DNA of 64,000 bases, taken from the NCBI GenBank assembly GCA_046346695.1, contig JAXMHS010000004.1, forward strand, positions 98,085 to 162,084, given 5' to 3'. The position numbers and the translations under genes are program-made. This DNA comes from Verrucomicrobiaceae bacterium. GTDB taxonomy: Bacteria > Verrucomicrobiota > Verrucomicrobiia > Verrucomicrobiales > Verrucomicrobiaceae. Each line of letters begins with the position of its first letter. Position 1 is the first letter of the stretch. Of the stretch, positions 3,554-59,820 are shown piece by piece. The notes under the pieces were generated by a model. That model was not told the origin of the DNA. It did not search any database and saw nothing but the letters and a program-made list of their open reading frames with translations.

Positions 3554-4671
3554 TGTCCCTCGCCCCCTTCGATCACCAGCCCCGCACCCGACTCGTTTAT
3601 GGCAACGGTACGCTGGCTCGTGTCGGTGAGCTGGCGCGTGAGATTGGCGGCACACGGGCGCTGGTGGTGAGTGATCCCGGCATCGTCGGCGCGGGTTACG
3701 TGACGCGTGCGGTCAGCTTCCTCGTCGAGACCGGACTGCAGGCGCGTGTGTTTGGCGAGGTGCGCGAGAATCCCAGCACGGAGGATGTGGATGCTTGCGT
3801 CGCAGCAGCGCGTGAGTTTGGCGCTGATCTCATCATCGGTCTCGGCGGCGGCAGCAGCATGGACACCGCGAAGGGCTGCAACTTCATCCTCACCAACGGC
3901 GGACGCATGCACGACTACTGGGGTGTCGGCAAGGCCACGAAACCCATGCTGCCGCTCATCGCCATTCCCACCACCGCTGGAACTGGCAGCGAGTGCCAGA
4001 GCTTTGCGCTCATCTCCGATCCCGAGACGCACGTGAAGATGGCCTGTGGTGATCCCAAGGCCGCTGCGAAGGTCGCCATCCTCGATCCCGAGCTCACCAT
4101 CTCCCAGCCGCAGCGTGTCACCGTCTGCACCGGCATCGACGCGCTCTCGCACGCGCTCGAAACCGCCGTCACGAAGAAGCGTAACGCGCTCTCATCCCTT
4201 TACTCCCGCGAAGGCTTCCGCCTCTGCCACTCCGGCTTCAGCCGCGTCCTGCGCGATCCGAAGGATGTCGAAGCCCGCGGCATGATGCTCCTCGGCGCCG
4301 CCTACGCCGGAGTCGCCATCGAGAACAGCATGCTCGGCGCCGCACACTCCTGCGCCAATCCCCTCACCGCCTTCTTTCACACCGTGCATGGAGAGGCCGT
4401 CGGCGTCATGCTGCCCCACGTCATCCGCTTCAACTCCGCGTTGCCCGAAATCGCCGCCATCTACGAAAGCTACTTCGACGGCGACCTCGCCGACCGCGTC
4501 AGCGAACTTCTCTGGGAAGCCAAGATGCCCCGCACCATCACCGAGCACGGTGCCAAGGAGGAAAACCTCCGCGAACTCGCCGAACTCGCCGCCAAACAGT
4601 GGACCGCCCAGTTCAATCCTCGGGAACCCAGTGTGGAAGACTTTGTCGAGATGTATCGCGCGGCGTTGTGA
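3553..4671 (+). CDS. Iron-containing alcohol dehydrogenase
   Basis: GLGGGSSMDTAK, IPTTAGTGSE, GIDALSHALE, AHSCAN, HGEAV motifs. Confidence 0.93.
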   Translation: MSLAPFDHQPRTRLVYGNGTLARVGELAREIGGTRALVVSDPGIVGAGYVTRAVSFLVETGLQARVFGEVRENPSTEDVDACVAAAREFGADLIIGLGGGSSMDTAKGCNFILTNGGRMHDYWGVGKATKPMLPLIAIPTTAGTGSECQSFALISDPETHVKMACGDPKAAAKVAILDPELTISQPQRVTVCTGIDALSHALETAVTKKRNALSSLYSREGFRLCHSGFSRVLRDPKDVEARGMMLLGAAYAGVAIENSMLGAAHSCANPLTAFFHTVHGEAVGVMLPHVIRFNSALPEIAAIYESYFDGDLADRVSELLWEAKMPRTITEHGAKEENLRELAELAAKQWTAQFNPREPSVEDFVEMYRAAL

Positions 4672-5648: not shown

Positions 5649-6349
5649 GGTGATTGCTTTTTATTCTTGTCAAAAAGCCTTTGGAAAAACGACTTTTTAT
5701 CTTTGAAGTCAGGTTGGGGGTTCGGTTTAGGCAGCAAGGCGGGTGGTACTCCAGAGGTGTCCATGCCCCGGGGAACCGAACCGAAGAAATTTAGAATGCG
5801 TTTGCCTGTCTCATCAAAATAAACTGAGCCAACTTCACCGCCAGCGCCTTCGAACAACTGCTTGCAGCGAATAATTCCATTCGGCTTACGCCACTGCTGA
5901 ATTTTCCAAGCTCCAGCTTCATCGTAAATGCTCTCAAGCGAGTAGATCAGCACGCCTGATGAAAAGTACTGGCCCGTCCAGACCTCCCGACCGCGGTCAT
6001 CGTAACGATGGAGATCCACCAACCAAGGCACGATATCGCTCTTGTCGTTTGGGACTGCTGGCAAGCCATTGTCCCTGTAATAAATCTCGGACAATCGGCG
6101 GCCTCGCGGATCAAACGAGGACCGTGTTGCGACAACGCCAATTGGAGATGGCCAGGGGTAGATTTCCAGCTTCCCAGACTCCGCCTGGTCAAAGGCAGCA
6201 GCCAGTTCGCTTGATCTTATCATGTAACGTTTGCGTATTCCGTGATCGCTCTGGGACAGCAGTTCCGGCAAACCCGCTTCCTCGTCGAAGAACGCCTCTG
6301 GCTCACTCGCATTGTTTTGCGGCACCATCTTCAGTTTACCCACACTCAT
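5645..6349 (-). CDS. Hypothetical protein with repeated YD/YwqK-like beta-hairpin motifs
   Basis: RYDDRGREV..QYFSSG, IYDEAG..QWRKPNG, YFDETGKRI; AT-richer than flanks; start uncertain (ORF open to 6586). Confidence 0.55.
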   Translation of the reverse strand: MSVGKLKMVPQNNASEPEAFFDEEAGLPELLSQSDHGIRKRYMIRSSELAAAFDQAESGKLEIYPWPSPIGVVATRSSFDPRGRRLSEIYYRDNGLPAVPNDKSDIVPWLVDLHRYDDRGREVWTGQYFSSGVLIYSLESIYDEAGAWKIQQWRKPNGIIRCKQLFEGAGGEVGSVYFDETGKRILNFFGSVPRGMDTSGVPPALLPKPNPQPDFKDKKSFFQRLFDKNKKQSP

Positions 6350-10352: not shown

Positions 10353-10805
10353 ATGTCCATGATCACCGGAACCAAACAACCAGCCAAAGACCACGCCAAA
10401 CTGGCAGATTTCATTCTGTTCAGCCAGCGTGAGTTCCTGCTGAATCTCTCCCGCGAGCTGAACCGAGACAACATCTCCTTCGCTCAGTTTTTCCTCCTCA
10501 GTTACCTCGCCACATCGAAGGAACTGACCATGACGGACATCGCACGCAAAATGGGCCACTCCACCGCCGCCGCCACGGGGCTCGTCGACCGCCTCGAAAA
10601 GCTCGGCTACATGGAGCGCACCCATGCTATCGACGATCGCCGCAAGGTGCTCGTCCGCATCACCTCCCGAGGCATTGAGCTCGTCAGCCGCCTGCGTGAC
10701 GAACTGCAAAATCAGATCGCCGATGCGATGAGCGAAACATCCTCCGAGGATGCCGCCAGCTTCATGAGTTCGTATCGTACGCTGGACACGGCGATGTCTC
10801 GCTAA
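10353..10805 (+). CDS. MarR-family transcriptional regulator
   Basis: ISFAQFFLL, TMTDIARKMG, ATGLVDRLEKLGYMER, DDRRKVLVRIT. Confidence 0.92.
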   Translation: MSMITGTKQPAKDHAKLADFILFSQREFLLNLSRELNRDNISFAQFFLLSYLATSKELTMTDIARKMGHSTAAATGLVDRLEKLGYMERTHAIDDRRKVLVRITSRGIELVSRLRDELQNQIADAMSETSSEDAASFMSSYRTLDTAMSR

Positions 10806-22843: not shown

Positions 22844-22920
22844 TCTCGTATTTCAGCCCCTGTTTGGGTCTAATTGGGGTGGATAGCGGCATACTCCGTT
22901 ATCCACATAACATAATAACC
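22844..22920 (+). promoter_or_regulatory. Conserved promoter box and leader hairpin, pilin-like gene 1
   Basis: TCTCGTA..N..GGTCTAAT, 28-nt hairpin 22879-22906, then ATAACATAATAACC; shared with 23923-23997. Confidence 0.6.
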
Positions 22921-22933
22921 AAACGATAAATAA

Positions 22934-23782
22934 ATGAAAACGAAACGAAACCACGCCTTCACTCTGATCGAGTTGTTGGTGGTAATCACGATCATCGCGA
23001 TTCTCGCGAGCCTGGCCGTGCCCACCTACACCCTCATTCAGAGGATGGCCAATCAGATAAGAGGCGTCAACAACGCCAAACAGATCATCGTCTCGATGAA
23101 GCTGTTCGCGAAGGAACACAACAGCCAGTATCCTGACTCAGTGCCCAATCCGCTCACAGGCAGTTCTGCACAGACCGCCAATGACGCATTCCGGTACATG
23201 ATTCAGGAAAAGTTCGCGACGGATGAGCGCATCTTCGGCTGCCCCGCCGGTCTCAACCCGGATTCCAACATCGGTCAGGGCCCCAGCTATGGCTATGCTT
23301 TGATGCCTGGTGAAAACCATTGGGCGATGACTGGCAACCAGACGGACGCCACGGAGGGCAACATGCCCCTCGTGTTTGAAAACCCAGCCACCCCCAGCTG
23401 GCCTCCGCTCTGGAATGCCAATGTGGCAGGTCAGGTCGCTCCTGGCCGCACCTGGCCTGGTGGCAAGGTCATCATTGGTCGCAATGACGGCAGCGCCGCC
23501 GTGGAAACTCTGGCTGGCAGCAGCGGTATGGTTGGTCCCCGAGTCATGGCCGGTGGCTCGAACATGTTCACCCAAGCCTCCCAAGGCATGTCACTGCGCG
23601 TTTTGCCGGTGGTTTATGGCAATGTCGGCGTTGCTGATCCAGCAACGCTCGCTCGCAGCCTTCCCCCTCCCGTCCCTGGTCCCCTCTCTACTGGAGTGCC
23701 CGGCACTACTCCGGCTTCTGAGGGTGTTGCCAGTGCTTCAGCAGCTCCCGTCGGCCTGCCGCCTTCGGTTTTAAAACAGTAA
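22934..23782 (+). CDS. Prepilin-type N-terminal cleavage/methylation protein (pilin/pseudopilin-like), paralog 1
   Basis: MKTKRNHA|FTLIELLVVITIIAILASLAVP; Pro-rich C-terminal tail. Confidence 0.9.
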   Translation: MKTKRNHAFTLIELLVVITIIAILASLAVPTYTLIQRMANQIRGVNNAKQIIVSMKLFAKEHNSQYPDSVPNPLTGSSAQTANDAFRYMIQEKFATDERIFGCPAGLNPDSNIGQGPSYGYALMPGENHWAMTGNQTDATEGNMPLVFENPATPSWPPLWNANVAGQVAPGRTWPGGKVIIGRNDGSAAVETLAGSSGMVGPRVMAGGSNMFTQASQGMSLRVLPVVYGNVGVADPATLARSLPPPVPGPLSTGVPGTTPASEGVASASAAPVGLPPSVLKQ

Positions 23783-23804
23783 TCTAGCCTGAAGGCAATC
23801 CACG

Positions 23805-23836
23805 CCGCCGGATGCACGCCATCCGGCGGTTTTTTT
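23805..23836 (+). terminator. Rho-independent terminator
   Basis: CCGCCGGATG/CATCCGGCGG stem plus T7. Confidence 0.8.
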
Positions 23837-23922
23837 GTGCTTTGGTGTGCGGGCAGCTAACTGACCTTTTCCCTGTCATTTTCGATGACTTTACCCCCAT
23901 GCCCCTGATGCGAACATTTTTT

Positions 23923-23997
23923 TCTCGCATTATAGAACTCGGTTCGGTCTAATCAGTGGGTGCCGGATTAATTCGGAGCCCACATAACATCATAACC
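23923..23997 (+). promoter_or_regulatory. Conserved promoter box and leader hairpin, pilin-like gene 2
   Basis: TCTCGCA..N..GGTCTAAT with the same spacing as copy 1, 28-nt hairpin 23956-23983, then ATAACATCATAACC. Confidence 0.6.
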
Positions 23998-24019
23998 AAC
24001 CCACAAACGCACTCATAAA

Positions 24020-24910
24020 ATGAAAACGAAACGAACCCACGCCTTCACTCTAATCGAGCTGTTGGTGGTGATCACAATCATCGCGATTCTCGCGAGCTTG
24101 GCCGTGCCCGCCTACAACGGCATTCAGCGCATGGGCAACCAGACCAAAGGGGTCAACAACTGCAAGCAGATCATCCTCTCGCTCAAGCAGTTCTCCAAGG
24201 ACAACAACAGCCAGTATCCGGACTCCGTACCCAATACGACGACCGGAGGAGGCGTTGCTGCCACGTCGAATGACGCCTTCCGCTTCCTGATTCAGGAGCA
24301 GATCGTTCAGGACGAGCGCATCTTTGGCTGTCCGGCTGGCTACAATCCCGATGGAAACATTGGCACCGCACCCAGTTACGGCATGTCACTCACACCGAAC
24401 GAAAACCACTGGGCCATGACGGCCGGTCAGACTGATGCCACCCAAGGCAACATGCCCATCGTGTTCGAAAACTCGGTGACCTCTGGCTGGCCTCCGCAGT
24501 GGAATGCGGATGTTGCTGGTCAGATCCGTCCAGGCCGTACCTGGCCCGGAGGCGAAATCATCATCGGTCGTAACGACGGCAGCGTCCAAGTGGAGAAACT
24601 GAATGGCAAACGTGGTACCGTCGGCCCGAAGGCCATGGCCGGAGGCATGGATTCCTTCACCCAAGCTTCCCAAGGTGTGCCGCAACGCGTGCTCAATGCA
24701 GTCATTGCTGGAGGTGGGCAAATGCAGGGCATTAACACCAACATGCCAGGTGGCCTAGGTTTCCCTGGCCAGCCGGGTTTGCCTGGTGGGCTTCCGGGTC
24801 AGCCGGGTCTCCCCGGAGGTCTTCCGGGTCAGCCGGGTCTCCCCGGAGGTCTTCCGGGTCAGCCGGGTCTCCCTGGAGGCCTTCCTGGTGGTCTTCCACC
24901 GAATCAGTGA
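24020..24910 (+). CDS. Prepilin-type N-terminal cleavage/methylation protein, paralog 2, with C-terminal GLPGGLPGQP repeats
   Basis: MKTKRTHA|FTLIELLVV; aligns along its length with paralog 1. Confidence 0.9.
   Translation: MKTKRTHAFTLIELLVVITIIAILASLAVPAYNGIQRMGNQTKGVNNCKQIILSLKQFSKDNNSQYPDSVPNTTTGGGVAATSNDAFRFLIQEQIVQDERIFGCPAGYNPDGNIGTAPSYGMSLTPNENHWAMTAGQTDATQGNMPIVFENSVTSGWPPQWNADVAGQIRPGRTWPGGEIIIGRNDGSVQVEKLNGKRGTVGPKAMAGGMDSFTQASQGVPQRVLNAVIAGGGQMQGINTNMPGGLGFPGQPGLPGGLPGQPGLPGGLPGQPGLPGGLPGQPGLPGGLPGGLPPNQ
24761..24895 (+). repeat. 30-bp coding tandem repeat (about 4.5 units)
   Basis: cttccgggtcagccgggtctccccggaggt exact at 24791 and 24821, near-exact at 24851, degenerate at 24761. 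Confidence 0.95.
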
Positions 24911-35909: not shown

Positions 35910-36836
35910 ATGGAGCAACCAGAGTCTTTGCCAGCTTTTGATCCGGTTGCCGCCGATGCGTTCTTTGCTGACCTGATTTCCCGCTATTCGAGTAGCGATG
36001 ACCAAATCATCAAAGATCTGGTGAGTTTTCACCCCCTTACACAGTTCGACGAGTCTGAGTATGTGAGACTACTGAATCTAAGTCTCTCGCTTGATGTCTC
36101 TGAGAAGAAGCGTGTGGTGGATGCCACCCCTACACTTTCGCAGTTTCAGATTGATGAGTTGCTCAAGGTTTTTCGAGAGGAACAGGAGCAGTTTGAGAGT
36201 CTGCGCCCCAAAGAGGGCGAAACCATTTCACAGCTTGAGGAACATAAGAAGACCGAGTGGGTAGCACTCAAGGAACTTTATATTGCAGAGCTCAAATCGA
36301 GGAGAGATGAGAATAGAAGGTCTGCGGAGTCTGCTCCAACAGATGCCGAGGTAAACACCATTCAGGCGTTTCTCAGCCCTTACAATGCTGAGATAGTTCG
36401 AGCATTGGCTCGACGTCCTGCGGACATTTACACACTAACGCCACGACAATTTGAGGTGCTAATGGCTGAGATTCTAAACGATTTGGGTTGGAGCATCGAA
36501 CTTACGCCAGAGTCTAAGGATGGAGGTCGAGATATTATTGCCACGATTCCTTTCGGCTCTTCGAAGCTTCTTGGATTAGTGGAGTGCAAGCGATATTCGC
36601 CCGATCATAAGGTGGGTTTAGAGATTGTTGAGAGATTTGCATATACTGTGAGAGACCGAGACAGGGCTAGCTTTGGCATGTTGGCTACATCATCCTACTT
36701 TACTCAAGGGGCGTGGAGTGCTGCACAACGCCACCAATGGCAGATGCAACTCCACGATTTCGATCACATTTGCCACCTTCTGAAGAATTATGGACATTAC
36801 AAACAAGATGCAAGGATGGCCTGCCCCCGGAAGTGA
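35910..36836 (+). CDS. Gene cassette 2: Mrr-like restriction endonuclease with helical N-terminal domain, 3' end clipped by IS
   Basis: RQFEVLMAEIL..LGW, SKDGGRDIIA, VECKRY (PD-(D/E)xK); the last residues MACPRK are IS-encoded. Confidence 0.85.
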   Translation: MEQPESLPAFDPVAADAFFADLISRYSSSDDQIIKDLVSFHPLTQFDESEYVRLLNLSLSLDVSEKKRVVDATPTLSQFQIDELLKVFREEQEQFESLRPKEGETISQLEEHKKTEWVALKELYIAELKSRRDENRRSAESAPTDAEVNTIQAFLSPYNAEIVRALARRPADIYTLTPRQFEVLMAEILNDLGWSIELTPESKDGGRDIIATIPFGSSKLLGLVECKRYSPDHKVGLEIVERFAYTVRDRDRASFGMLATSSYFTQGAWSAAQRHQWQMQLHDFDHICHLLKNYGHYKQDARMACPRK

Positions 36837-36841
36837 GACAG

Positions 36842-37777
36842 TCAAAAATGTAGTTTCAGCATCCTTGGTTTGTTGATGTTGGGTTTTTCTGTTGCGCTGT
36901 CAAACGCAGCGGAGGTCTCATCGAGCGTAGCGAGATGAGGCCGCAGCGAAGTTTGACAGCGTGCGGCCACCTCCGCCGGGGTTCGGTAGCCCAGCGAGCT
37001 GTGCGGCCGACATTCGTTGTACTCGTGCCGCCAGGCGTCGATGATCACCCTGGCTTCCGCCAGCGTGCCAAAGACTTCGCGGTTGAGGCACTCGTCGCGC
37101 AGCTTGTCGTGGAACGATTCGATATATGCGTTCTCCCACGGCGAGCCGGGCTTGATATAGAGCGTCTTGATGTGCTTCGCTGCGAGCCAGTCCTGGATGG
37201 CATACGCGACGAACTCCGGTCCGTTGTCACTGCGGATGTGCTCGGGCGTGCCGTGCTTGTGCATGGCCTGCTCCAGCACCATGAGCACATCCTGCGCACG
37301 GATCGACCACGCCACATGCGTGGCAAGGCATTGCCGCGTGTGCTCGTCGATGAGCGTCAGGATGCGGAACGCTCCTCCTGATTCGGTCTGGTCCATCACG
37401 AAGTCCCAGCTCCACACCTGGTTGCGCCGTGCGGCGCTCAGACGCTGTGCCTGGGATGGGCCAAGCCTGCGTGTGCGTCGCTGACGCTTGCGCACCTGCA
37501 GCCCTTCGGCACGTCTCACGCGTGCCACGCGCTTGGCGTTGATCCGCCTGCCTTCGCGTCTCAGCAGCGCGGTGATGCGCCGGTAGCCGTAGCGCGGATG
37601 CTGGCGGCTCAACTTCACGATGCGGTTGTTCATCCTCCGGCTGCCTTGACTCACTGCCTTCACGCGATAATAGCCCGAACGTGCCAGCCGCACCGCACGA
37701 CACGCCTGCGTGATCCTGCCAAGACCACTGTCCACCGCGCAGCGTGCCGCTTGGCGTTTGCTCGCCGGGCTCACCAT
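36842..37777 (-). CDS. IS3-family transposase OrfB (DDE integrase core)
   Basis: YGYRRI, WSWDF, IRSDNGPEF, PGSPWENAYIESF, EYNECRPHSSLG. Confidence 0.95.
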   Translation of the reverse strand: MVSPASKRQAARCAVDSGLGRITQACRAVRLARSGYYRVKAVSQGSRRMNNRIVKLSRQHPRYGYRRITALLRREGRRINAKRVARVRRAEGLQVRKRQRRTRRLGPSQAQRLSAARRNQVWSWDFVMDQTESGGAFRILTLIDEHTRQCLATHVAWSIRAQDVLMVLEQAMHKHGTPEHIRSDNGPEFVAYAIQDWLAAKHIKTLYIKPGSPWENAYIESFHDKLRDECLNREVFGTLAEARVIIDAWRHEYNECRPHSSLGYRTPAEVAARCQTSLRPHLATLDETSAAFDSATEKPNINKPRMLKLHF

Positions 37778-38037
37778 TTTTTTGCGTTCACGAACTTCAA
37801 GATGTCGATCTGCACGCTGAGGTCCGCGACGATGCGTTTGAGACGCGCGTTCTCTTCGGCAAGAGCACGCGCCTGCCTCAGCTCATCGACCTGCATCCCG
37901 CCGTATTTGCGCTTCCACCCGTAGTAGGTCTGCTCGCTGATGTTGTGCCGTGCGCACACCTCTTTGACCTTCATCCCACCCTGCGCTTCGCGCAGGATGC
38001 TCACGATCTTCTCCTCACTGTGTCTGCTCTTTTTCAT
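37771..38037 (-). CDS. IS3-family transposase OrfA (HTH)
   Basis: MKKSRHSEEKI..LRE..G..V..VC..H.IS..TYY.WKRKYGGM; joins OrfB by a -1 shift at GCA AAA AAA TGG. Confidence 0.95.
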   Translation of the reverse strand: MKKSRHSEEKIVSILREAQGGMKVKEVCARHNISEQTYYGWKRKYGGMQVDELRQARALAEENARLKRIVADLSVQIDILKFVNAKKW

Positions 38038-38156
38038 GTCGTTCTGTTCTCCTGGTTACGGAGCCAGAACTACATTTTACAACTGTCCTCTTTTCCGGGG
38101 GCAGGCCAAGGACGGGACTGTGGGTGTTTCCCAAGGGAGACATTGGCCATGAAAAG

Positions 38157-46921: not shown

Positions 46922-46949
46922 TTGACGCTTCGGGCCGCGCTTCTACTAT
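46922..46949 (+). promoter_or_regulatory. sucC promoter
   Basis: TTGACG-N16-TACTAT. Confidence 0.65.
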
Positions 46950-46969
46950 CGCGCTCCCCTTTCTCCCCC

Positions 46970-48151
46970 ATGAACATCCACGAGTATCAGGCCAAGCAGT
47001 TGTTTGAAAAATTCGGCGTCGCCAGCCCCAAGGGCATCGTTGCCAGCACAGCGGAGGAAGCAGGCAGTGCCGCACGTGAGATCGGTGGCCCGGGCCTCGT
47101 GGTGAAGGCACAGATTCATGCCGGCGGTCGTGGCAAAGGCACCTTCAAAAATGGCTTCAAAGGCGGCGTTCATGTGGTGGACGCTCCCGAGCAGGCGAAG
47201 GACATCGCGGGCAAGATGCTCGGCCAGACGCTTGTCACGCATCAGACCGGCGCTGACGGCAAGCTGGTGAGCAAGGTCCTCATCGCAAAGGCCGTGGACA
47301 TCACGAAGGAATACTACTTCGCCATCCTGTTCGACCGCGGCAGCAGCGGCCACGCCATCATCGCCAGCACTGAGGGTGGCATGAACATCGAGGACGTGGC
47401 GGCAAAGACGCCGGAGAAGATCATCAAGGAGTTCATTCATCCGACCCTCGGCCTGCAGGGTTATCAGTGCCGCAAAATCGCGGCGGCGCTCGGTTTGCGC
47501 GGCGCCTTGATGAACCAGGCGGTGAAACTTTTCTCCGCCATGTGGAACCTGTATTCGAAGTGCGACTGCTCGCTCGTGGAGATCAACCCCCTGGCCGTCA
47601 CCACCGACAACCAGCTCGTGGCGCTGGATGCAAAGTTCAACTTCGACGACAACGCGCTTTACCGCCAGAAGGACATCGTGGCCATGCGTGACAAGAGCGA
47701 GGAAGACCCGCGCGAAGTCGCCGCCAGCGAATACGAGCTGAACTACATCGGCCTCGACGGCAACATCGCCTGCCTCGTCAACGGCGCGGGCCTCGCCATG
47801 TCCACGATGGACATCATCAAGTTCCACGGCGGCGAGCCCGCCAACTTCCTCGATGTTGGCGGCGGCGCGACGAAGGAACAGGTCACCGCGGCCTTCAAGA
47901 TCATCCTCGGCGATCCGAATGTGAAGGGTATCTTGGTGAACATCTTCGGCGGCATCATGGACTGCAACATCATCGCCACCGGCATCATCGCCGCAGCTCA
48001 GGAGACGCACCTGAACATCCCGCTCGTGGTCCGGCTCGAAGGCAACAACGTCGAGGCCGGCAAGGCCACCCTGGCCGCCAGCGGTCTGGCCATCACCAGC
48101 GCCAGCGACCTGACCGACGCGGCGAAGAAAATCGTCGCCGCAGTGAACTGA
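46970..48151 (+). CDS. sucC: Succinyl-CoA synthetase beta subunit
   Basis: [48 protein letters not shown]. Confidence 0.97.
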
Positions 48152-48211: not shown

Positions 48212-48994
48212 CTACCGCACCAGTCGGCGAAACTCGCTCAAAGCGAAATTGCCCAGCCGGTTCAGCCGGTTGCGCAGAATTTGCAGCGGCGTCTTGTCCA
48301 CGAAAAAGGTGAGCAGGATCGAGTCACGCGTCTGCACCTCGGGCCCCACGGTGTCCACTGAATGATACGTGTGCCGGTCCACCGCGAACGCATAGCCGGT
48401 GTTTGGCGAGAAGGACATCTGCGCGGCCCGCTCCAGGGCGTTCTCGCTGTTGATCTTGTAAAAGACGGTGCCCACATGCTCGATGGAACGATCCGGCGGC
48501 AGATAAAGCTGGATCGTCATGCCCTTCCAATGCGTGTCCGGATGAAGGCCAATGCTGTAACCCGGCACGTCCCTTGTCAGAATCGGAATGGGATACATGC
48601 GCACCCTCGTGTAGTCCGGCCCAAAACGCTTTTCGAGACCCGGCGCGAGCCGCTGCCGGAACGCCTCGCGAACTTCCTTCGAGCAGAGCACCTTGCCCAC
48701 CACCTCCCAGACTTCTCGCTTCTCCCGCGGCAGGCGCCGGATGTATTCCGGCAGCAGGTCGATCTTCGTGCGTGTGCCGCTCCCATCATTCGTCCGCGTG
48801 GATTTGGCAGCGCCGGACATCTGGCGATAGTCCCCCTTGACCGGCATCGCGCTCAACAAGGCCGCATACATGTCCGCCGGAAACACATCGACGAGCCGCA
48901 AATGAAAAAACGGCTCGTCACTCTGCTCCGCGGCGTGAATGGCGCCCACCACATGCTGGATGAGGTTCTGGATGTTGCTGCTCTTGTTCGTCAT
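48212..48994 (-). CDS. 2OG-Fe(II) oxygenase-family protein
   Basis: GYSIGLHPD (HxD), QLYLP, GTVFY, FSPNTGYAF, YHSV, RDSILL; start uncertain. Confidence 0.75.
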   Translation of the reverse strand: MTNKSSNIQNLIQHVVGAIHAAEQSDEPFFHLRLVDVFPADMYAALLSAMPVKGDYRQMSGAAKSTRTNDGSGTRTKIDLLPEYIRRLPREKREVWEVVGKVLCSKEVREAFRQRLAPGLEKRFGPDYTRVRMYPIPILTRDVPGYSIGLHPDTHWKGMTIQLYLPPDRSIEHVGTVFYKINSENALERAAQMSFSPNTGYAFAVDRHTYHSVDTVGPEVQTRDSILLTFFVDKTPLQILRNRLNRLGNFALSEFRRLVR

Positions 48995-49132
48995 TGGAAT
49001 CGCCGCTGCATGGCTTCCCCAGCCTGCCATGATCAGCTCGAAGGAGCAACGCTTCAATGACACATCAACTTCAACCAAAGAATCTCACAGACATCCACGC
49101 ACCCGCAAAGAACGCTCTTGACCAACCTCATG

Positions 49133-49165
49133 GACGTTGCGTTGCCTGCATCCGTTTTGTTCGTC
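49133..49165 (-). other. Decayed attC half-site, same family as attC1
   Basis: CGAACAAAACGGATGCAGGCAACG (24 nt) identical to 35802-35825, then GCAACGTC as in attC1 after an internal deletion. Confidence 0.7.
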
Positions 49166-49170
49166 CCGCA

Positions 49171-49370
49171 TCACTTGGATTTCTTGTCGGTTGCTTCCTT
49201 CGTCTCGAACCCCAAGAGTGTTTCTCGCTGTTTCGTACGAGGCATCACGCCAAACCATATGCTGGTGTTTGACCTGCTCCCGAAGGTTGAGCCAGACTTT
49301 ATGAGAGTCTGGAGGTGGCTGGCGGCTTGGTTTGAGTGTTGGGTTTGGGTGGGGGATTGCGTTGCCCAGC
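49171..49370 (-). pseudogene. 3' remnant of a cassette-like gene
   Basis: Reading frame ends ...EATDKKSK* just before the decayed attC; 5' part replaced by the IS3 relic. Confidence 0.4.
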
Positions 49371-49530
49371 ACTTTTGCCTCGGCCAGCGTGGCGAAGACT
49401 TCGAGGTCGAGCAGTTCATCGCGCAGGCGGCTGTTGAAGCTCTCGCTGCAGGCGTTCTGCAACGGGCTGCCTGGCTGGCGATCCATTCGCGCACGGCTTT
49501 GGCGATGAACTCCGGAACGTTGTCGCTGCA
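49371..49530 (-). pseudogene. IS3-family transposase fragment (frameshifted)
   Basis: CSDNVPEFIAKAVREWI then, in another frame, PGSPLQNACSESFNSRLRDELLDLEVFATLAEAKVL. Confidence 0.8.
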
Positions 49531-49584
49531 GATGAACTGGCTTTCGGCAGAGGATGCCTCAAATCGGCACGTCATGTCAAAACT
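49531..49584. repeat. 54-bp direct repeat, copy 1
   Basis: 48/54 identical to 50567-50620; minus strand carries TTGACA-N18-CATCCT. Confidence 0.85.
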
Positions 49585-49693
49585 CGGGAGGCTGGGTAGT
49601 GTCTTGGACACTACCGGCTGAGGAGCAGGCAACGAAAAGAATGCTTGGCAAAGAGGGGGGTGAATGGGTAACATCATCGTGTTCACCCCTCGA

Positions 49694-50374
49694 ATGTCCG
49701 ATGGATCCGAAGACCTTTGCAGAACAGATGCGTCAGGCACGCTTGAAGTCGCCCTTGCTCAAACGCGAGCAGGCGCTGAAGCAATTCGCCGAGGTGGAGG
49801 CCTATTTGGTTCGACACAGCTTGCGGCCGAATGCGAGGCTCTCCGCCAGTGGGCAGAAAGCGCGGGGTATTTGAGGAGCTTTGAAGAAACCGCCCGTCCT
49901 CCCGATGCCTTCGGGTATGAGCACGAGGTCTGGTTTCCTCCATCCGGCGAACAAAGCGGGCAGGTCATCAAGGCGACCTATGGAAACTGCTTTGGCCATC
50001 TGCCCGACGGCAGCGAGGCGACGCCTCTCGGCTACTTGGAGCGCCTGCGGCTGTGCAATGAAGTGCTGGGGGACCAAATTCGCCTGCTCGGCGTGGACGA
50101 GTTTCGCCCAGGCGTGATTCGCGTGATCACGAGCCAGCCCGCGATCGAAGGCCACCCAGCCGAGTCGGAGGAAGTCGTGCAGTTTTTTACCGGCTCTGGT
50201 TTTGAGAAACGCCGCTGGGGCGCGAACACCGTCTGGTTCCGTCCGGTGGACAATCTCGTCGCCTCGGACACGCATGGTGGGAATGTGCTGCGCACTGCCA
50301 GCGGCGCCTTGGTGGCCATTGATGTGCCGCTCATGATCTGGCATCCAGGCATGAAACCGCTCGATGCGGTGTAA
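49694..50374 (+). CDS. Stand-alone Kinase-PolyVal-like protein (kinase domain of polyvalent proteins)
   Basis: GYEHEVW, VIK, YLERLRLCNEVLGD, ITSQPAIEG, SDTHGGNVL..G.L..ID catalytic-loop pattern. Confidence 0.75.
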   Translation: MSDGSEDLCRTDASGTLEVALAQTRAGAEAIRRGGGLFGSTQLAAECEALRQWAESAGYLRSFEETARPPDAFGYEHEVWFPPSGEQSGQVIKATYGNCFGHLPDGSEATPLGYLERLRLCNEVLGDQIRLLGVDEFRPGVIRVITSQPAIEGHPAESEEVVQFFTGSGFEKRRWGANTVWFRPVDNLVASDTHGGNVLRTASGALVAIDVPLMIWHPGMKPLDAV

Positions 50375-50391
50375 CCCACGGAGCGCGGCAT

Positions 50392-50562
50392 TCATGCTGC
50401 CACCATGCTGAAACAGGACACGAAGTTCGCGACGATGTAGAACTGGCCGATCTCCTGCGGCAGCGCGTCCAAGATCGGCGGCGGTGCAGGCGCAGGCTCC
50501 TCAGCACGCAGCAGCAGGCAGGCGGAAAGGGGCAGCGTCAGGATGAGGTGTGGCGCATGCAT
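50392..50562 (-). pseudogene. Short or truncated secreted-protein gene
   Basis: Signal-peptide-like MHAPHLILTLPLSACLLLRA-EEPAP; only 56 aa; directly behind the promoter in repeat copy 2. Confidence 0.4.
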
Positions 50563-50566
50563 GGCG

Positions 50567-50620
50567 GATGAACTGGCTTTCCGCAGAGGATGCCTCAAAA
50601 CGCCTCGTCGTGTCAAGACT
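50567..50620. repeat. 54-bp direct repeat, copy 2
   Basis: See copy 1; 1036 bp apart. Confidence 0.85.
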
Positions 50621-50628
50621 GTGAGCCA

Positions 50629-50787
50629 GGAGCGCGGACTTCAGTCCGCAGCACTCCACCAGCATAACCAGTTCCGCGCTCGTCCTTCACCTCTGTTCCA
50701 CCGAGGATCACACTGCTTGCAGCATCGAACACTCGATTCGCTCCCGCCATTCGTGAACAACCTGCTGCGGACTAAAGTCCGCGCTCC
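50629..50787. repeat. 159-bp REP doublet (REPIN/BIME-like), left of RAYT
   Basis: GGAGCGCGGACTTCAGTCCGC ... GCGGACTAAAGTCCGCGCTCC. Confidence 0.9.
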
Positions 50788-50828
50788 TTTCGCTTGCGAC
50801 GCATCCGACGATTTGATTCCATGTTCGC

Positions 50829-51500
50829 ATGAGCGAACCGAATCCGCGCCGCCCAGGCCCACCACACCATCCCGAAGTGCGGGAAGTGGTGCGTCGGCAG
50901 CGTGAGGTGTCGCAGAATCCAACTCGCGAGGAGCAGAGGGCTGGCTTTCGCGGCTGGAACGAGCGTGGTTACGTCCCGCATCGCGATGAACCGGGCCTGA
51001 CGCAGTTCGTCACCTTCCGTCTGGCCGACAGCTTTCCCGCCGAGCTTCGCGATGAGTGGGAAAAGCTGTTAAAGATCGAGGACGATCGCGAACGCCGCAC
51101 GCAATTGGAGGCGTGGCTCGATCTCGGCCACGGCGTGTGTCATTTGAAGGATGTGCGGATCGCGCAGCTTGTGGCAGAAGCGCTGCGGAAGTTCGACAGC
51201 GAGCGTTACCGCCTGATCGCCTTCACGATCATGCCAAATCACGTGCATGTCTTGTTCGAGGTCGGCGAGACGCCGATGGCGAAGGTTGTGCGTGATTGGA
51301 AAGGCACGACGGCCCGCGCCGCGAACGCACTGTTGGGTCTGACCGGCTCGTTCTGGCAGCAGGATTATTGGGACACCTACATGCGCGATGTCGAACACGA
51401 GGAGCAGACGATTCGTTACATCCGGAACAATCCCGTGAAAGCCGGTTTGGTGAACGACTGGCAGCAATGGCCTTGGACCTACGTGCGCCCCAAGGATTGA
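50829..51500 (+). mobile_element. REP-associated tyrosine transposase (RAYT, HUH/Y1)
   Basis: RGYVPH, QFVTFRLADS, IMPNHVHVL (HUH), WKG.TA, FWQQDYWD, YIRNNPVKAGL; REP-flanked. Confidence 0.92.
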
Positions 51501-51659
51501 GGAGCGCGGACTTCAGTCCGCAGCACTCCGCAAGCACCTGTCACGCCGCCGCACCAATTTTCGCCCACCACACCGAGGATCACTCTGCTTGCGGCATCGC
51601 GTGCTCGAGTCGCTCCCGCCATTCGTGAGCAACCCGCTGCGGACTAAAGTCCGCGCTCC
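51501..51659. repeat. 159-bp REP doublet, right of RAYT
   Basis: Same ends, length and orientation as the left copy; the 3' part of the spacer is also conserved. Confidence 0.9.
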
Positions 51660-51846
51660 AGCCGGAACGAGCACGCCGGGAGGTCGGGGACGGGTGGCGC
51701 GAACAGGCGGAGCGATTGGGACGTGGCTGAGAGGAGATTGTCTGTCGCTGGTCAACTGGTTGTACCCTGGCGTCGCTTCCCTGAGAGTTATTGTTGGCTG
51801 CAGTCGCTATTGCTAAACAATGCCTTCGTTTTAGTTTCTAAGCGCG

Positions 51847-53973
51847 ATGAACTATAAATCAAAAAAATCCAGCTACGACAACAGCCTATTTACTCTGCGT
51901 TTCATGGGTGATGGTGGCCTGCCCCCGGAAGTGAGACAGTCAAAAATGTAGTTTCAGCATCCTTGGTTTGTTGATGTTGGGTTTTTCTGTTGCGCTGTCA
52001 AACGCAGCGGAGGTCTCATCGAGCGTAGCGAGATGAGGCCGCAGCGAAGTTTGACAGCGTGCGGCCACCTCCGCCGGGGTTCGGTAGCCCAGCGAGCTGT
52101 GCGGCCGACATTCGTTGTACTCGTGCCGCCAGGCGTCGATGATCACCCTGGCTTCCGCCAGCGTGCCAAAGACTTCGCGGTTGAGGCACTCGTCGCGCAG
52201 CTTGTCGTGGAACGATTCGATATATGCGTTCTCCCACGGCGAGCCGGGCTTGATATAGAGCGTCTTGATGTGCTTCGCTGCGAGCCAGTCCTGGATGGCA
52301 TACGCGACGAACTCCGGTCCGTTGTCACTGCGGATGTGCTCGGGCGTGCCGTGCTTGTGCATGGCCTGCTCCAGCACCATGAGCACATCCTGCGCACGGA
52401 TCACCACGCCACATGCGTGGCAAGGCATTGCCGCGTGTGCTCGTCGATGAGCGTCAGGATGCGGAACGCTCCTCCTGATTCGGTCTGGTCCATCACGAAG
52501 TCCCAGCTCCACACCTGGTTGCGCCGTGCGGCGCTCAGACGCTGTGCCTGATAATAAGCCTGCGTGTGCGTCGCTGACGCTTGCGCACCTGCAGCCCTTC
52601 GGCACGTCTCACGCGTGCCACGCGCTTGGCGTTGATCCGCCTGCCTTCGCGTCTCAGCAGCGCGGTGATGCGCCGGTAGCCGTAGCGCGGATGCTGGCGG
52701 CTCAACTTCACGATGCGGTTGTTCATCCTCCGGCTGCCTTGACTCACTGCCTTCACGCGATAATAGCCCGAACGTGCCAGCCGCACCGCACGACACGCCT
52801 GCGTGATCCTGCCAAGACCACTGTCCACCGCGCAGCGTGCCGCTTGGCGTTTGCTCGCCGGGCTCACCATTTTTTGCGTTCACGAACTTCAAGATGTCGA
52901 TCTGCACGCTGAGGTCCGCGACGATGCGTTTGAGACGCGCGTTCTCTTCGGCAAGAGCACGCGCCTGCCTCAGCTCATCGACCTGCATCCCGCCGTATTT
53001 GCGCTTCCACCCGTAGTAGGTCTGCTCGCTGATGTTGTGCCGTGCGCACACCTCTTTGACCTTCATCCCACCCTGCGCTTCGCGCAGGATGCTCACGATC
53101 TTCTCCTCACTGTGTCTGCTCTTTTTCATGTCGTTCTGTTCTCCTGGTTACGGAGCCAGAACTACATTTTACAACTGTCCTCTTTTCCGGGGGCAGGCCA
53201 ATGGCTTTGATTTGCACGGAGCAAGCATCTACGACTTGGGGATTGCTTTCATGACGTTCCAGAGATTGCTGAACAAGACCTTTCTCTTGACGCGAGATCG
53301 CTTGGAAAAAGGTGCTTTCCCAAAGCGAGACGAACGCCAGTTGTTGGCTCTACAGATCGGCGAAAGGCGGAAAGCTTCTGATGGATACGGCCTTCTGCCA
53401 TTGCTCACTGATCCGACAAATCTTCAGATTCTTCGCTTTGTCGGAGAACAACTAATGGCCGGACTCTTTGGCTATTATGTTCAGGACATCATGAAGCGTC
53501 TCAAACGTGAAGAGAACGACGAAAAGAGGTTCTTTATCGGCTCAATTCATGCAGAAGTTGTGAACATCGTCGGACGAATTGACGCGGCAGGAGGAATCGG
53601 GGCGCTCGAAATAGGTGCTCCTGGAATCAGCCATGCCAAGCCAGTGTTGTTCACAGAAGAAACAAAAAAGTACGTCAACAAGCTCTCCAAAGAACACTTT
53701 CTCGGCCCAAAGCAGACAATTCGTGGAAAACTTGTTAAACTATTGCCAGGGGCGGGCGTGATCGAAATTAACAGCCGTGGACGCGGCAAGGTAAAGGTTC
53801 ATGTAGACACCGAGATTTTCGATCGAGTCCGCTTCGATAAATCTCGATCTGACATGTTGGAGTTTGTGGGACGCCCCATTTTCCCGCTTGGAGCACAATC
53901 ACAGAAGGTTTACGAGTTAGAAGCCTCTGACGTGCGCGTACTTGAGCCAGACCCGACCGATGGAAATTGGTAA
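51847..53973 (+). pseudogene. Unknown 278-aa gene interrupted by IS copy 2
   Basis: Removing the IS and one ATGG TSD restores one frame: MNYKSKKSSYDNSLFTLRFMGDG-FDLHGASIYDLGIAF...PDPTDGNW* (837 nt). Confidence 0.85.
51915..53200 (-). mobile_element. IS3-family (IS407-group-like) copy 2, 1286 bp, frameshifted
   Basis: Same IRs; TSD ATGG (51911-14 / 53201-04); 6 nt shorter than copy 1 (A7 to A6, a 1-nt deletion, and a 10-to-6-nt replacement). Confidence 0.95.
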
Positions 53974-53985
53974 ATGGCTTAAACT

Positions 53986-56733
<2,748 letters not shown>

Positions 56734-58911: not shown

Positions 58912-59820
<909 letters not shown>

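Follow-up and report, generated by a model that had tools for sequence, protein, structure and literature searches.

Direct repeats around a stand-alone Kinase-PolyVal gene of Verrucomicrobiaceae are probably diverged promoter copies left by an old duplication

Introduction

Kinase-PolyVal is a family of minimal protein kinases in which the protein-kinase C-terminal lobe (C-lobe) has been lost (Iyer, Burroughs, Anand, de Souza & Aravind 2017, PMC5512222). It occurs mainly in Verrucomicrobia-Chlamydia and Bacteroidetes, with stand-alone forms mentioned for Bacteroidetes only (PMC5512222), and carries 2 family-specific residues, a Glu before strand 2 and a Gln in the N-lobe's final strand (Iyer et al. 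2017, PMC5512222). Here we analyze a gene of this family on a stretch of 64,000 nt, hereafter the window, from a Verrucomicrobiaceae bacterium (assembly GCA_046346695.1, contig JAXMHS010000004.1, positions 98,085 to 162,084). The gene lies between 2 direct repeats, R1 and R2, together with the stub of a gene for a secreted protein that we call S. In a preliminary description, this arrangement was read as a 1-kb conflict module that could be excised or amplified by recombination between R1 and R2 and in which the repeat promoter possibly silences the kinase by antisense transcription. We arrive at a different reading, to which we give a probability of about 0.7: the repeats are diverged copies of the S promoter and the scar of an old duplication, in the simplest case a tandem one, around a long-resident kinase gene.

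Results

The repeats correspond to the upstream region of gene S

The direct repeat is formed by R1 (49528-49584, minus strand) and R2 (50564-50620, minus strand), which are 57 nt long, identical at 50 of 57 positions and spaced 1036 bp from start to start. The 54-nt core noticed before (49531-49584 and 50567-50620) was found again at the same spacing and with the same 48/54 identical positions, and a 33-nt core pattern fits these 2 places and no others in the 64-kb window and nothing in 100 shuffles. Because this structure was measured in the window and the R1-kinase-stub-R2 arrangement recurs in 4 other close-strain assemblies (L001-L004, 96% to 98% identical), the observation of the repeats is confirmed. 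The 2 copies are 12% diverged, and their longest exact run is 17 nt. Both carry TTGACA-N18-CATCCT on the minus strand; CATCCT agrees with the TATAAT -10 hexamer at 3 of 6 positions and was not called by a consensus promoter scanner. As had been described, the hexamers of R2 point to the 3' end of the kinase gene and those of R1 to a relic of an insertion sequence (IS).

The second gene between the repeats is the stub of S (50392..50562, minus strand), which comprises the first ~54 codons including the signal peptide, then a short out-of-context tail and a stop codon. Positions 50397-50562 on the minus strand are homologous to codons 1 to ~54 of a signal-peptide protein of 190 amino acids (aa) that is full length in relatives, so the preliminary assignment to a secreted protein was correct. 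S belongs to a family of 190-199-aa proteins in Prosthecobacter. Window positions 50397-50588, which take in the S 5' end and 26 nt in front of the start codon, share 84.9% nucleotide identity with the relative L034 (1892-2080), and the stub region shares 87.9% with the relative L037 (4943-5163). Between strains, the stub has evolved faster than its flanks (92% versus 96% to 98% identity).

The relatives indicate what R is. In L034, a full-length 190-aa S on the minus strand lies directly upstream of the kinase gene, in the order S start, 26 nt of R, kinase leader. In L037-L039, a full R of 57-62 nt stands immediately upstream of the S start codon and shares 88% identity with each of the window copies, and no kinase was found within 5 kb of R-S. 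When the upstream regions of S were aligned (window R1 and R2, L001, L037 and L040), TTGACA and CAT(C/T/A)(C/A)T stood in register. Because R sits upstream of the S start in relatives with these hexamers in register, we take it to be the promoter and 5' untranslated region (UTR) of S, with a putative promoter activity to which conservation and position point. The earlier suggestion that TTGACA-N18-CATCCT is a plausible promoter is supported by the same conservation. R2 would then be in its native place, directly upstream of the S start codon, and R1 would be a copy of the same region that, on its S-proximal side, now joins the IS relic at the GC(A/G)GATG microhomology.

Other identities for R were considered and rejected. 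As regards a multi-copy mobile element, a 21-base core gave 1 chance match (in a Lachnospiraceae genome) among 185,579 species genomes, a 20-base pattern gave 0 matches in JGI metagenome contigs, and contigs at least 80% alike to R led only to the 2 known places per metagenome. A coding sequence was discarded as well: in every frame 2 of the 7 differences are synonymous, as judged by eye, and no coding signal was seen. As regards a structured RNA, R and its surroundings gave no Rfam match at E values up to 5, and their folds did not go beyond ~-2 z.

The kinase gene is a long-standing resident near ileS

The open reading frame (ORF) enclosed by the repeats matches the Pfam profile Kinase-PolyVal (PF18762) with 34.9 bits, above the gathering score of 27, over residues 56-221 of a 236-aa ORF and positions 4-154 of the 160 in the profile. 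Of the 68 homologues found, 59 are listed with a precomputed PF18762 match; all those with a named source come from Verrucomicrobiota, mostly from Prosthecobacter-like metagenome-assembled genomes (MAGs), and their usual length is 226 aa. The 236-aa ORF, which begins at 49664, was ruled out as the gene, since every homologue starts at the equivalent of the ATG at 49694; the kinase gene (49694..50374, plus strand) therefore encodes 226 aa and not 236. K93, D192, N197 and D210 are unchanged in 17 sequences, 166-aa paralogues included, and the family-specific residues are invariant too (E76 before strand 2, Q148 in the last N-lobe strand). The AlphaFold (AF2) model (pLDDT 88.7, pTM 0.85) places two helices as an N-terminal extension before a kinase core that lacks the C-lobe; only beta strands follow helix 158-167, and the model ends at residue 226. 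In a Foldseek search of PDB, the best 50 matches were all protein kinases, but weak ones (best E 2.4e-3, TM scores 0.24-0.41). Profile score, catalytic residues and kinase folds thus bear out the preliminary assignment to a stand-alone Kinase-PolyVal-type kinase. The ratio of nonsynonymous to synonymous divergence (dN/dS) against 5 relatives was 0.10-0.17, so the gene is under purifying selection.

A 62-nt leader precedes the gene (49632..49693, plus strand), in which a promoter scan placed a sigma-70-like promoter, TTGGCA (49645-49650)-N18-TAACAT (49669-49674). This leader is conserved in the window (W), L001, L009, L013, L008, L006, L014 and L034, distant contexts included.

The gene for isoleucyl-tRNA synthetase, ileS (53986..56733, minus strand), serves as the syntenic anchor of the kinase locus in relatives. 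The kinase gene lies 1.1-2.8 kb from the ileS 3' end in L013 (a Prosthecobacter MAG), L009/L035 and L034, likewise in the window. Across these relatives, the synteny with ileS holds at 77% to 88% nucleotide identity. Nucleotide identities to the window are 78% to 83% for the kinase gene of these relatives; for ileS, they are 79% to 82% with L013 and 87.7% with L034, and L009 and L013 are 87% identical to each other. The genes between kinase and ileS differ among lineages (AbiJ-NTD4, TIR, and 260-aa and 278-aa proteins of unassigned family), and a ParE/Unstab_antitoxin pair is found upstream in L013 and L034. R1 and R2 are absent from the kinase loci of L013, L009/L035 and L034. The context differs for more distant homologues, which follow a Lon_C gene or lie between sbcD and sbcC; in the latter case (L014 / L015, 6001-6681), the kinase gene is 12 nt upstream of sbcC, an unusual operon interruption. 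DNA of the organism is present in activated-sludge, wastewater, plastisphere and soil metagenomes.

Since the synteny with ileS is kept in relatives without R1 and R2, and R-S occurs without the kinase in L037-L039, the kinase did not arrive with the repeats, contrary to what the preliminary description had supposed; repeats that prove in relatives to be promoters unrelated to its arrival are an outcome that the description itself had named as its refutation. Comparison of these loci indicates that the kinase is a vertically inherited resident with its own conserved promoter and no passenger of the repeats. A link to phage and plasmid conflict had also been suggested. No kinase relatives were found by tblastn in 50,697 phage records, 72,556 plasmids or IMG/VR, PADLOC gave no match for the kinase, and the 226-aa protein stands alone and is not one domain within a multidomain polyvalent protein carried by a phage, prophage or conjugative element. 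Partial copies of the gene have formed elsewhere: in L006, the stretch 10380-10620 is a decayed duplicate of the kinase leader and ~the first 240 nt of the gene (~69% identity), broken in all frames, in intergenic DNA that lies 3.7 kb downstream of this genome's intact kinase. Partial kinase duplicates thus arise and decay in other genomes too.

An old duplication accounts for the 2 copies of R

The window order R1-kinase-S5'-R2 is a circular permutation of the L034 order S5'-R-kinase, and the parts of the unit add up exactly to the spacing of the repeats: 189 (stub and junction) + 57 (R) + 47 (gap) + 743 (leader and kinase) = 1036. On the left side, R1 borders the C-terminal (rve_3) part of an IS3-family transposase relic recognized by Pfam (49085..49534, minus strand), which is frameshifted, has an internal deletion and is 75% identical to the full IS copy at 52280-52336. 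Within a shared 7-mer, GC(A/G)GATG, IS3-family homology gives way to R homology, so that the last 7 nt of the relic (GCAGATG) overlap R1. In L034 and L037, GCGGATG belongs natively to the 5'UTR of S, and the full IS copy contains it too, at 52330-52336; a junction inside a shared 7-mer is the signature of a microhomology-mediated deletion, which would have removed S. On the right side, R2 loses homology at its distal end 5-7 nt before R1 does, and a REPIN begins 7 nt further on. That R1 keeps 5-7 more ancestral distal bases fits R2 having been cut there. R1, R2 and the R of L037 differ pairwise at 6-7 of 57 positions in a star-like manner, and both copies are present in strains whose kinase has a synonymous divergence (dS) of 0.053 to the window. 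Because the 3 sequences are equidistant and both copies predate the split of these strains, the duplication is old.

The observed homologies, gene orders, junction sequences, selection and copy number can be accommodated by the following course of events, whose tandem nature and order we put forward as probable. The ancestor would have resembled L034, with S (minus strand) and kinase (plus strand) as divergent neighbors in the order S - R - kinase, within a toxin-antitoxin (TA)- and defence-rich variable region just downstream of ileS. A unit of 1036 bp, which began at ~codon 54 of S, took in R and the kinase and ended ~22 nt beyond the kinase stop, would then have been duplicated, most simply in tandem, giving S-R-kin | S5'-R-kin. 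Two losses would have followed. On the left, S would have been replaced by the IS3-family element, with the junction in the 7-nt GCGGATG just upstream of the S start, leaving R1 behind. On the right, the second kinase copy and whatever else lay past R2 would have gone, and a REPIN-RAYT element (RAYT, REP-associated tyrosine transposase; REP, repetitive extragenic palindromic sequence) now abuts R2. The remainder would be R1 - kinase - S stub - R2, as seen in the window.

Several points weigh against this reconstruction. The second kinase copy predicted by a tandem duplication was seen in no strain, so that only the order and spacing of the parts lead to a tandem event, and the population data are assembler contigs, from which rare variants are dropped. 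The inner junction (kinase stop+22 / S codon ~54) is placed only within ~25 nt, and outgroup sequence is lacking for the 22 nt past the kinase stop. The 56-nt spacer between S and kinase in L034 aligns with R over its first 26 nt only, without the hexamers, and compared with it the window has an extra segment of 47 nt that bears a hairpin (a perfect 9-bp GGTAGTGTC-TTG-GACACTACC at 49594..49615, between R1 and the kinase leader). Of all relatives whose S is full length, L037 has the R and S 5' end most like those of the window (88% at the nucleotide level), yet its S is not beside a kinase; the adjacency of S and kinase thus rests on L034 and the window. Finally, low-depth contigs of an L001-like strain in runs X8 and X9 part from the window within R2, after 50605 (TGCGATGTCAAGACTCGTGAAGGGGGCGAA...), with 30 nt of divergent sequence read; this suggests a strain polymorphism at the R2/REPIN boundary, within 50605-50627.

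The alternative that survives best is a dispersed duplication in which the kinase was never duplicated: either a short piece was copied across the kinase, or R1 is filler, for which R2 served as template during the microhomology-mediated repair that truncated the IS. It would explain why a second kinase copy is seen nowhere, why R1 is short, and why its left junction lies in a 7-nt microhomology, as template switching would give. R1, however, occupies the place that R has in L034, with S on one side and the kinase leader on the other, and it retains the extra ancestral distal bases; both features argue that it is the in-place original and not filler. Moreover, the stub and R2 come right after the kinase stop, and the spacing corresponds to one contiguous ancestral unit, for which a single tandem step suffices. 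We therefore consider a dispersed duplication, in either version, unlikely.

Excision, amplification and antisense silencing in the present population

That direct repeats flank a gene, that a plausible promoter in R faces the kinase 3' end, and that ParE/antitoxin, AbiJ and TIR genes occur in the neighborhood of relatives all speak for the excisable, antisense-silenced conflict module of the preliminary description. To be excised or amplified, the unit would have to recombine through R1 and R2. Homologous recombination needs a minimal homology, and 88% identity with exact runs of at most 17 nt makes it unlikely for this pair. In 12 DNA metagenomes holding the organism, depth was flat across the 1036-bp unit, and no contig joined across a 1036-bp deletion or a tandem copy (contigs only); the empty site of the neighboring IS3 was readily seen in the same kind of contig data. 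Neither empty sites, circles or arrays nor repeats alike enough to recombine were thus found, both R copies are stably kept across strains, and the repeats do not travel with the kinase as parts of one element, since R occurs without the kinase and the kinase without R. What stands of the amplifiable unit is that it was probably duplicated once in the past; an excisable or amplifiable form today was not seen in the 12 metagenomes.

For transcription, we used contigs from 7 metatranscriptomes of 3 studies, which are unstranded and of low depth. In the kinase gene, the RNA-derived contigs cover the 5' end only, starting at 49693-49706 and ending at 49863-49961; 3 of them stop at 49894-49895, one with adaptor read-through. 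The other covered parts of the 3-kb locus are a short 5' piece of the RAYT gene, 48900-48973, and one IS-relic contig that reaches 14 nt into R1. No RNA-derived contig fell on the stub, on R2 or on the 3' two-thirds of the kinase gene, where antisense silencing had been proposed to act; weak antisense transcription may still be compatible with contigs of this kind. The pattern suggests a discrete, abundant RNA over a small ORF in the +1 frame of the kinase. Taken together with the ancestral position of the kinase, the purifying selection on it and the lack of relatives in the phage, plasmid and viral collections searched, these data leave an excisable or amplifiable, antisense-silenced module very little probability. 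The structure is a rearrangement fossil and not an active excision or amplification device.

Flanking repeats in sister lineages

Direct repeats flank the kinase in all 5 lineages with at least 82% protein identity (W, L008, L009, L013 and L018). The repeats measure 57 nt at a spacing of 1036 bp in the window, 101 nt at 980 bp in L008, 329 nt at 1165 bp in L009-12/L035, 273 nt at 1093 bp in L013, and 126 nt at 959 bp in L018; they are absent from ~12 more distant kinase loci. In L009 and L013, the upstream repeat stops exactly at the start of the kinase leader. Outside the window, several flanking repeats are copies of intergenic elements, multi-copy or REP-associated, that stand between other genes as well, with 4 copies in L013 and 3 in L008; L037, which has no kinase, carries 6 copies of the so-called T element in 10 kb of a TA-rich island, where they separate nearly all the genes. 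The window R is different in kind, as it has 2 copies only and is a gene's own promoter.

Two explanations common to all these repeats were discarded. The repeats do not behave as attC sites: single-stranded DNA folds (L013, L018 and L009) did not surpass those of shuffles (z -2.2 to +1.2), no long hairpin was found, and no integrase is listed in the loci examined. Nor are they one homologous family kept alike by gene conversion, since nhmmer and shuffle-controlled Smith-Waterman comparisons found no cross-lineage similarity, except for REP motifs, a 70-nt piece (L009, L018 and L013) and a ~21-nt motif at the 3' end (L013 and L034). A likeness of R to sister-lineage elements seen by eye was not significant (z 1.8) and was dropped.

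That the kinase is a mobile single-gene cassette, which duplicates its target or sits between recombination sites, could be argued from the presence of flanking repeats (57-329 nt, spacing ~960-1165) in all 5 close lineages and from the exact ending of the upstream repeat at the leader in 2 of them, but it is the least probable of the alternatives, since the repeats are unrelated between lineages, several of them are multi-copy or REP-associated elements found elsewhere too (the kinase-less L037 included), attC-like hairpins are missing, R occurs only twice per (meta)genome, and the ileS synteny shared by W, L013, L009 and L034 means that their kinase loci are not independent insertions. A kinase-specific mechanism behind the flanking repeats does not appear to exist.

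The 21-nt motif, TTGCWNCCWGACSTSGTTTTC, ends 2 of the 4 intergenic E elements of L013 (E_a and E_b; 4598-4618 and 5736-5756) and occurs twice downstream of the kinase in L034 (2913-2933 and 2997-3017). A looser version ends the T element, and the exact motif is missing from the window. L013 also has REP hairpins (GCGGACT..AGTCCGC) of the family seen at the RAYT gene of the window.

A candidate overlapping gene at the 5' end of the kinase gene

The small +1-frame ORF over which the RNA-derived contigs lie is a candidate overlapping gene of 57 codons inside the 5' end of the kinase ORF (49701..49874, plus strand; product MDPKTFAEQMRQARLKSPLLKREQALKQFAEVEAYL...). Across lineages it has 57-63 codons and an invariant ATG 7 nt downstream of the kinase ATG, in the distant group with a GGAGG 7 nt upstream of its own ATG. 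Its first ~38 residues are nearly invariant, and it overlaps kinase codons 1-45. The kinase 5' segment shows no single-nucleotide polymorphisms between strains, and synonymous change in the kinase frame is low there: dS was 0.25-0.48 for codons 1-68 and 0.6-2.6 for the rest of the gene (one comparison being saturated), third positions took 0.5-0.9 states per codon in codons 1-45 and 1.8-2.4 elsewhere, and in codons 1-30 first positions are more variable than third ones. The GC content by codon position in codons 1-59 is 0.71/0.61/0.46 in 20 of 20 lineages, an abnormal pattern for a kinase-frame reading; in the +1 frame, the same values become 0.61/0.46/0.71, which is normal. Third positions of the +1 frame are 2-4 times less variable than ordinary synonymous sites. 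The kinase frame itself has an invariant ATG and is open in 19 of 20 lineages over this segment, and it also looks translated here, to judge by this conservation. Gene callers annotated the +1 ORF in 25 protein clusters. An exhaustive search with its product returned its own family and 3 proteins that share the N-terminal 40 residues and then differ; no match was found in Pfam, NCBIfam or PADLOC, and the product is predicted to fold as a helical hairpin.

Some readings of this segment were discarded. A separate 57-aa gene and a 167-aa kinase gene coupled at TTGA is ruled out: at the overlap, most lineages have CTG and no other canonical start, so the kinase needs the upstream ATG. Public annotations are divided between a single 226-aa gene and a 57-aa + 167-aa pair; the pair of L013 uses a CTG start. 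Programmed frameshifting between the frames was rejected, as no conserved slippery heptamer is visible in the alignment. The openness of the +1 ORF was not counted as evidence, because 90% of synonymous resamplings of the kinase frame leave the +1 frame uninterrupted.

At the 5' end of the kinase gene, suppression of synonymous change, GC by codon position and RNA coverage all suggest dual coding, and on the sequence patterns the best reading is that both frames are constrained over ~49701-49815. A constraint at the RNA level on top of a single coding frame is possible. We advance the following only as a tentative proposal, somewhat likelier to fail than to hold: the 5' ~120-200 nt would encode both a helical-hairpin protein of 57-63 aa and the kinase, the choice of start on a short-leader mRNA would set their ratio, and the pair would form an undescribed two-product module across Verrucomicrobiaceae, possibly TA-like or self-regulating.

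Neighboring elements

The REPIN-RAYT block next to R2 (50628..51801, plus strand) consists of a REPIN (50628-50788), a RAYT gene with a Y1_Tnp domain (50829-51500; 40.3 bits), a second REPIN (51500-51659) and a T element of ~145 nt (51658-51801). The inverted arms of the REPINs are 24-26 nt long and 96% complementary (50628-50653/50763-50788 and 51501-51524/51636-51659). A full-length IS3-family element follows (51915..53200, minus strand); it has a 4-bp target duplication (ATGG) and is a recent insertion, absent in close strains (L001 and run X4). A second IS3-family copy, at 36817-38100, has the 4-bp target duplication AGGA; relative to it and to the metagenome consensus, the copy at 51915 has 6 bases fewer at 4 places and is frameshifted or contains assembly errors. 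Between the IS3 and ileS lies a gene (53137-53973) with a GC content of 0.48-0.50, against ~0.61 around it, which gave no Pfam or PADLOC match and fills the slot of the AbiJ, TIR or other genes of relatives.

The genes sucC (46922-48151) and sucD (58912-59820), usually adjacent, are 10.7 kb apart in the window, and the interval between them is the whole variable region: a 288-aa gene, the IS relic, kinase, RAYT, the IS3, the low-GC 278-aa gene, ileS and 2 ORFs. Elsewhere in the window, at 22903-24675, there is a tandem pair of paralogous units of ~1.08 kb that are ~75% identical, with collagen-like 30-nt repeats at 24757-24906.

Discussion

The structure that had been flagged is mostly ordinary, a probable rearrangement scar in an IS- and REPIN-rich variable region, and recognizing it as such removes a false lead and offers a worked example of how outgroup gene order decodes a repeat-flanked gene. 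The analysis also documents a conserved, chromosomal, stand-alone branch of Kinase-PolyVal in Verrucomicrobia, with its own putative promoter and in a TA- and defence-rich island beside ileS, and this locus is a tractable entry point to learn the substrates of minimal kinases. The possible overlapping small gene is the one feature here that a specialist would find surprising. Same-strand overlapping genes are rare in bacterial chromosomes, and dual coding, if true, would be such a case; it would also change the annotation of the 226-aa and 57+167-aa gene calls in the kinase family.

With tandem-duplication scars that carry IS-associated microhomology deletions, the window shares the circular permutation, the spacing of one unit length, the truncated gene and the 7-nt microhomology; it differs from them in that the second full copy is gone and the event is reconstructed from outgroups and not observed. 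Regarding REP/REPIN-RAYT systems, a Y1 transposase gene between inverted pairs of REP hairpins is what the element beside R2 contains, and related multi-copy elements flank the kinases of sister lineages. R itself is neither a REP nor a REPIN; it forms the 5' flank of S, occurs in 2 copies only and lacks a hairpin pair.

The kinase 5' end invites comparison with the HipBA and Phd-Doc kinase TA pairs and with hok/mok, since a small conserved ORF is located at the 5' end of a kinase gene; the locus is in a TA- and defence-rich island, and the small-ORF region gives its most abundant RNA. In contrast to all 3, the small ORF is wholly inside the kinase ORF, in another frame, and not upstream of it. 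Its product has no homology to HipB or Phd. The likeness is one of layout alone.

The closest described system remains Kinase-PolyVal itself (PMC5512222). The window kinase has the above-threshold score, the missing C-lobe, the catalytic Lys/Asp/Asn/Asp, E76 and Q148 in common with it. Unlike the Kinase-PolyVal domains of polyvalent proteins, it is stand-alone, chromosomal and vertically inherited, and unlike the family as described it has an N-terminal helical extension of ~60 residues. The multidomain polyvalent setting is a trait of the original context of the family and not of the Kinase-PolyVal domain, and the kinase of the window is a new stand-alone, chromosomal member of this known family.

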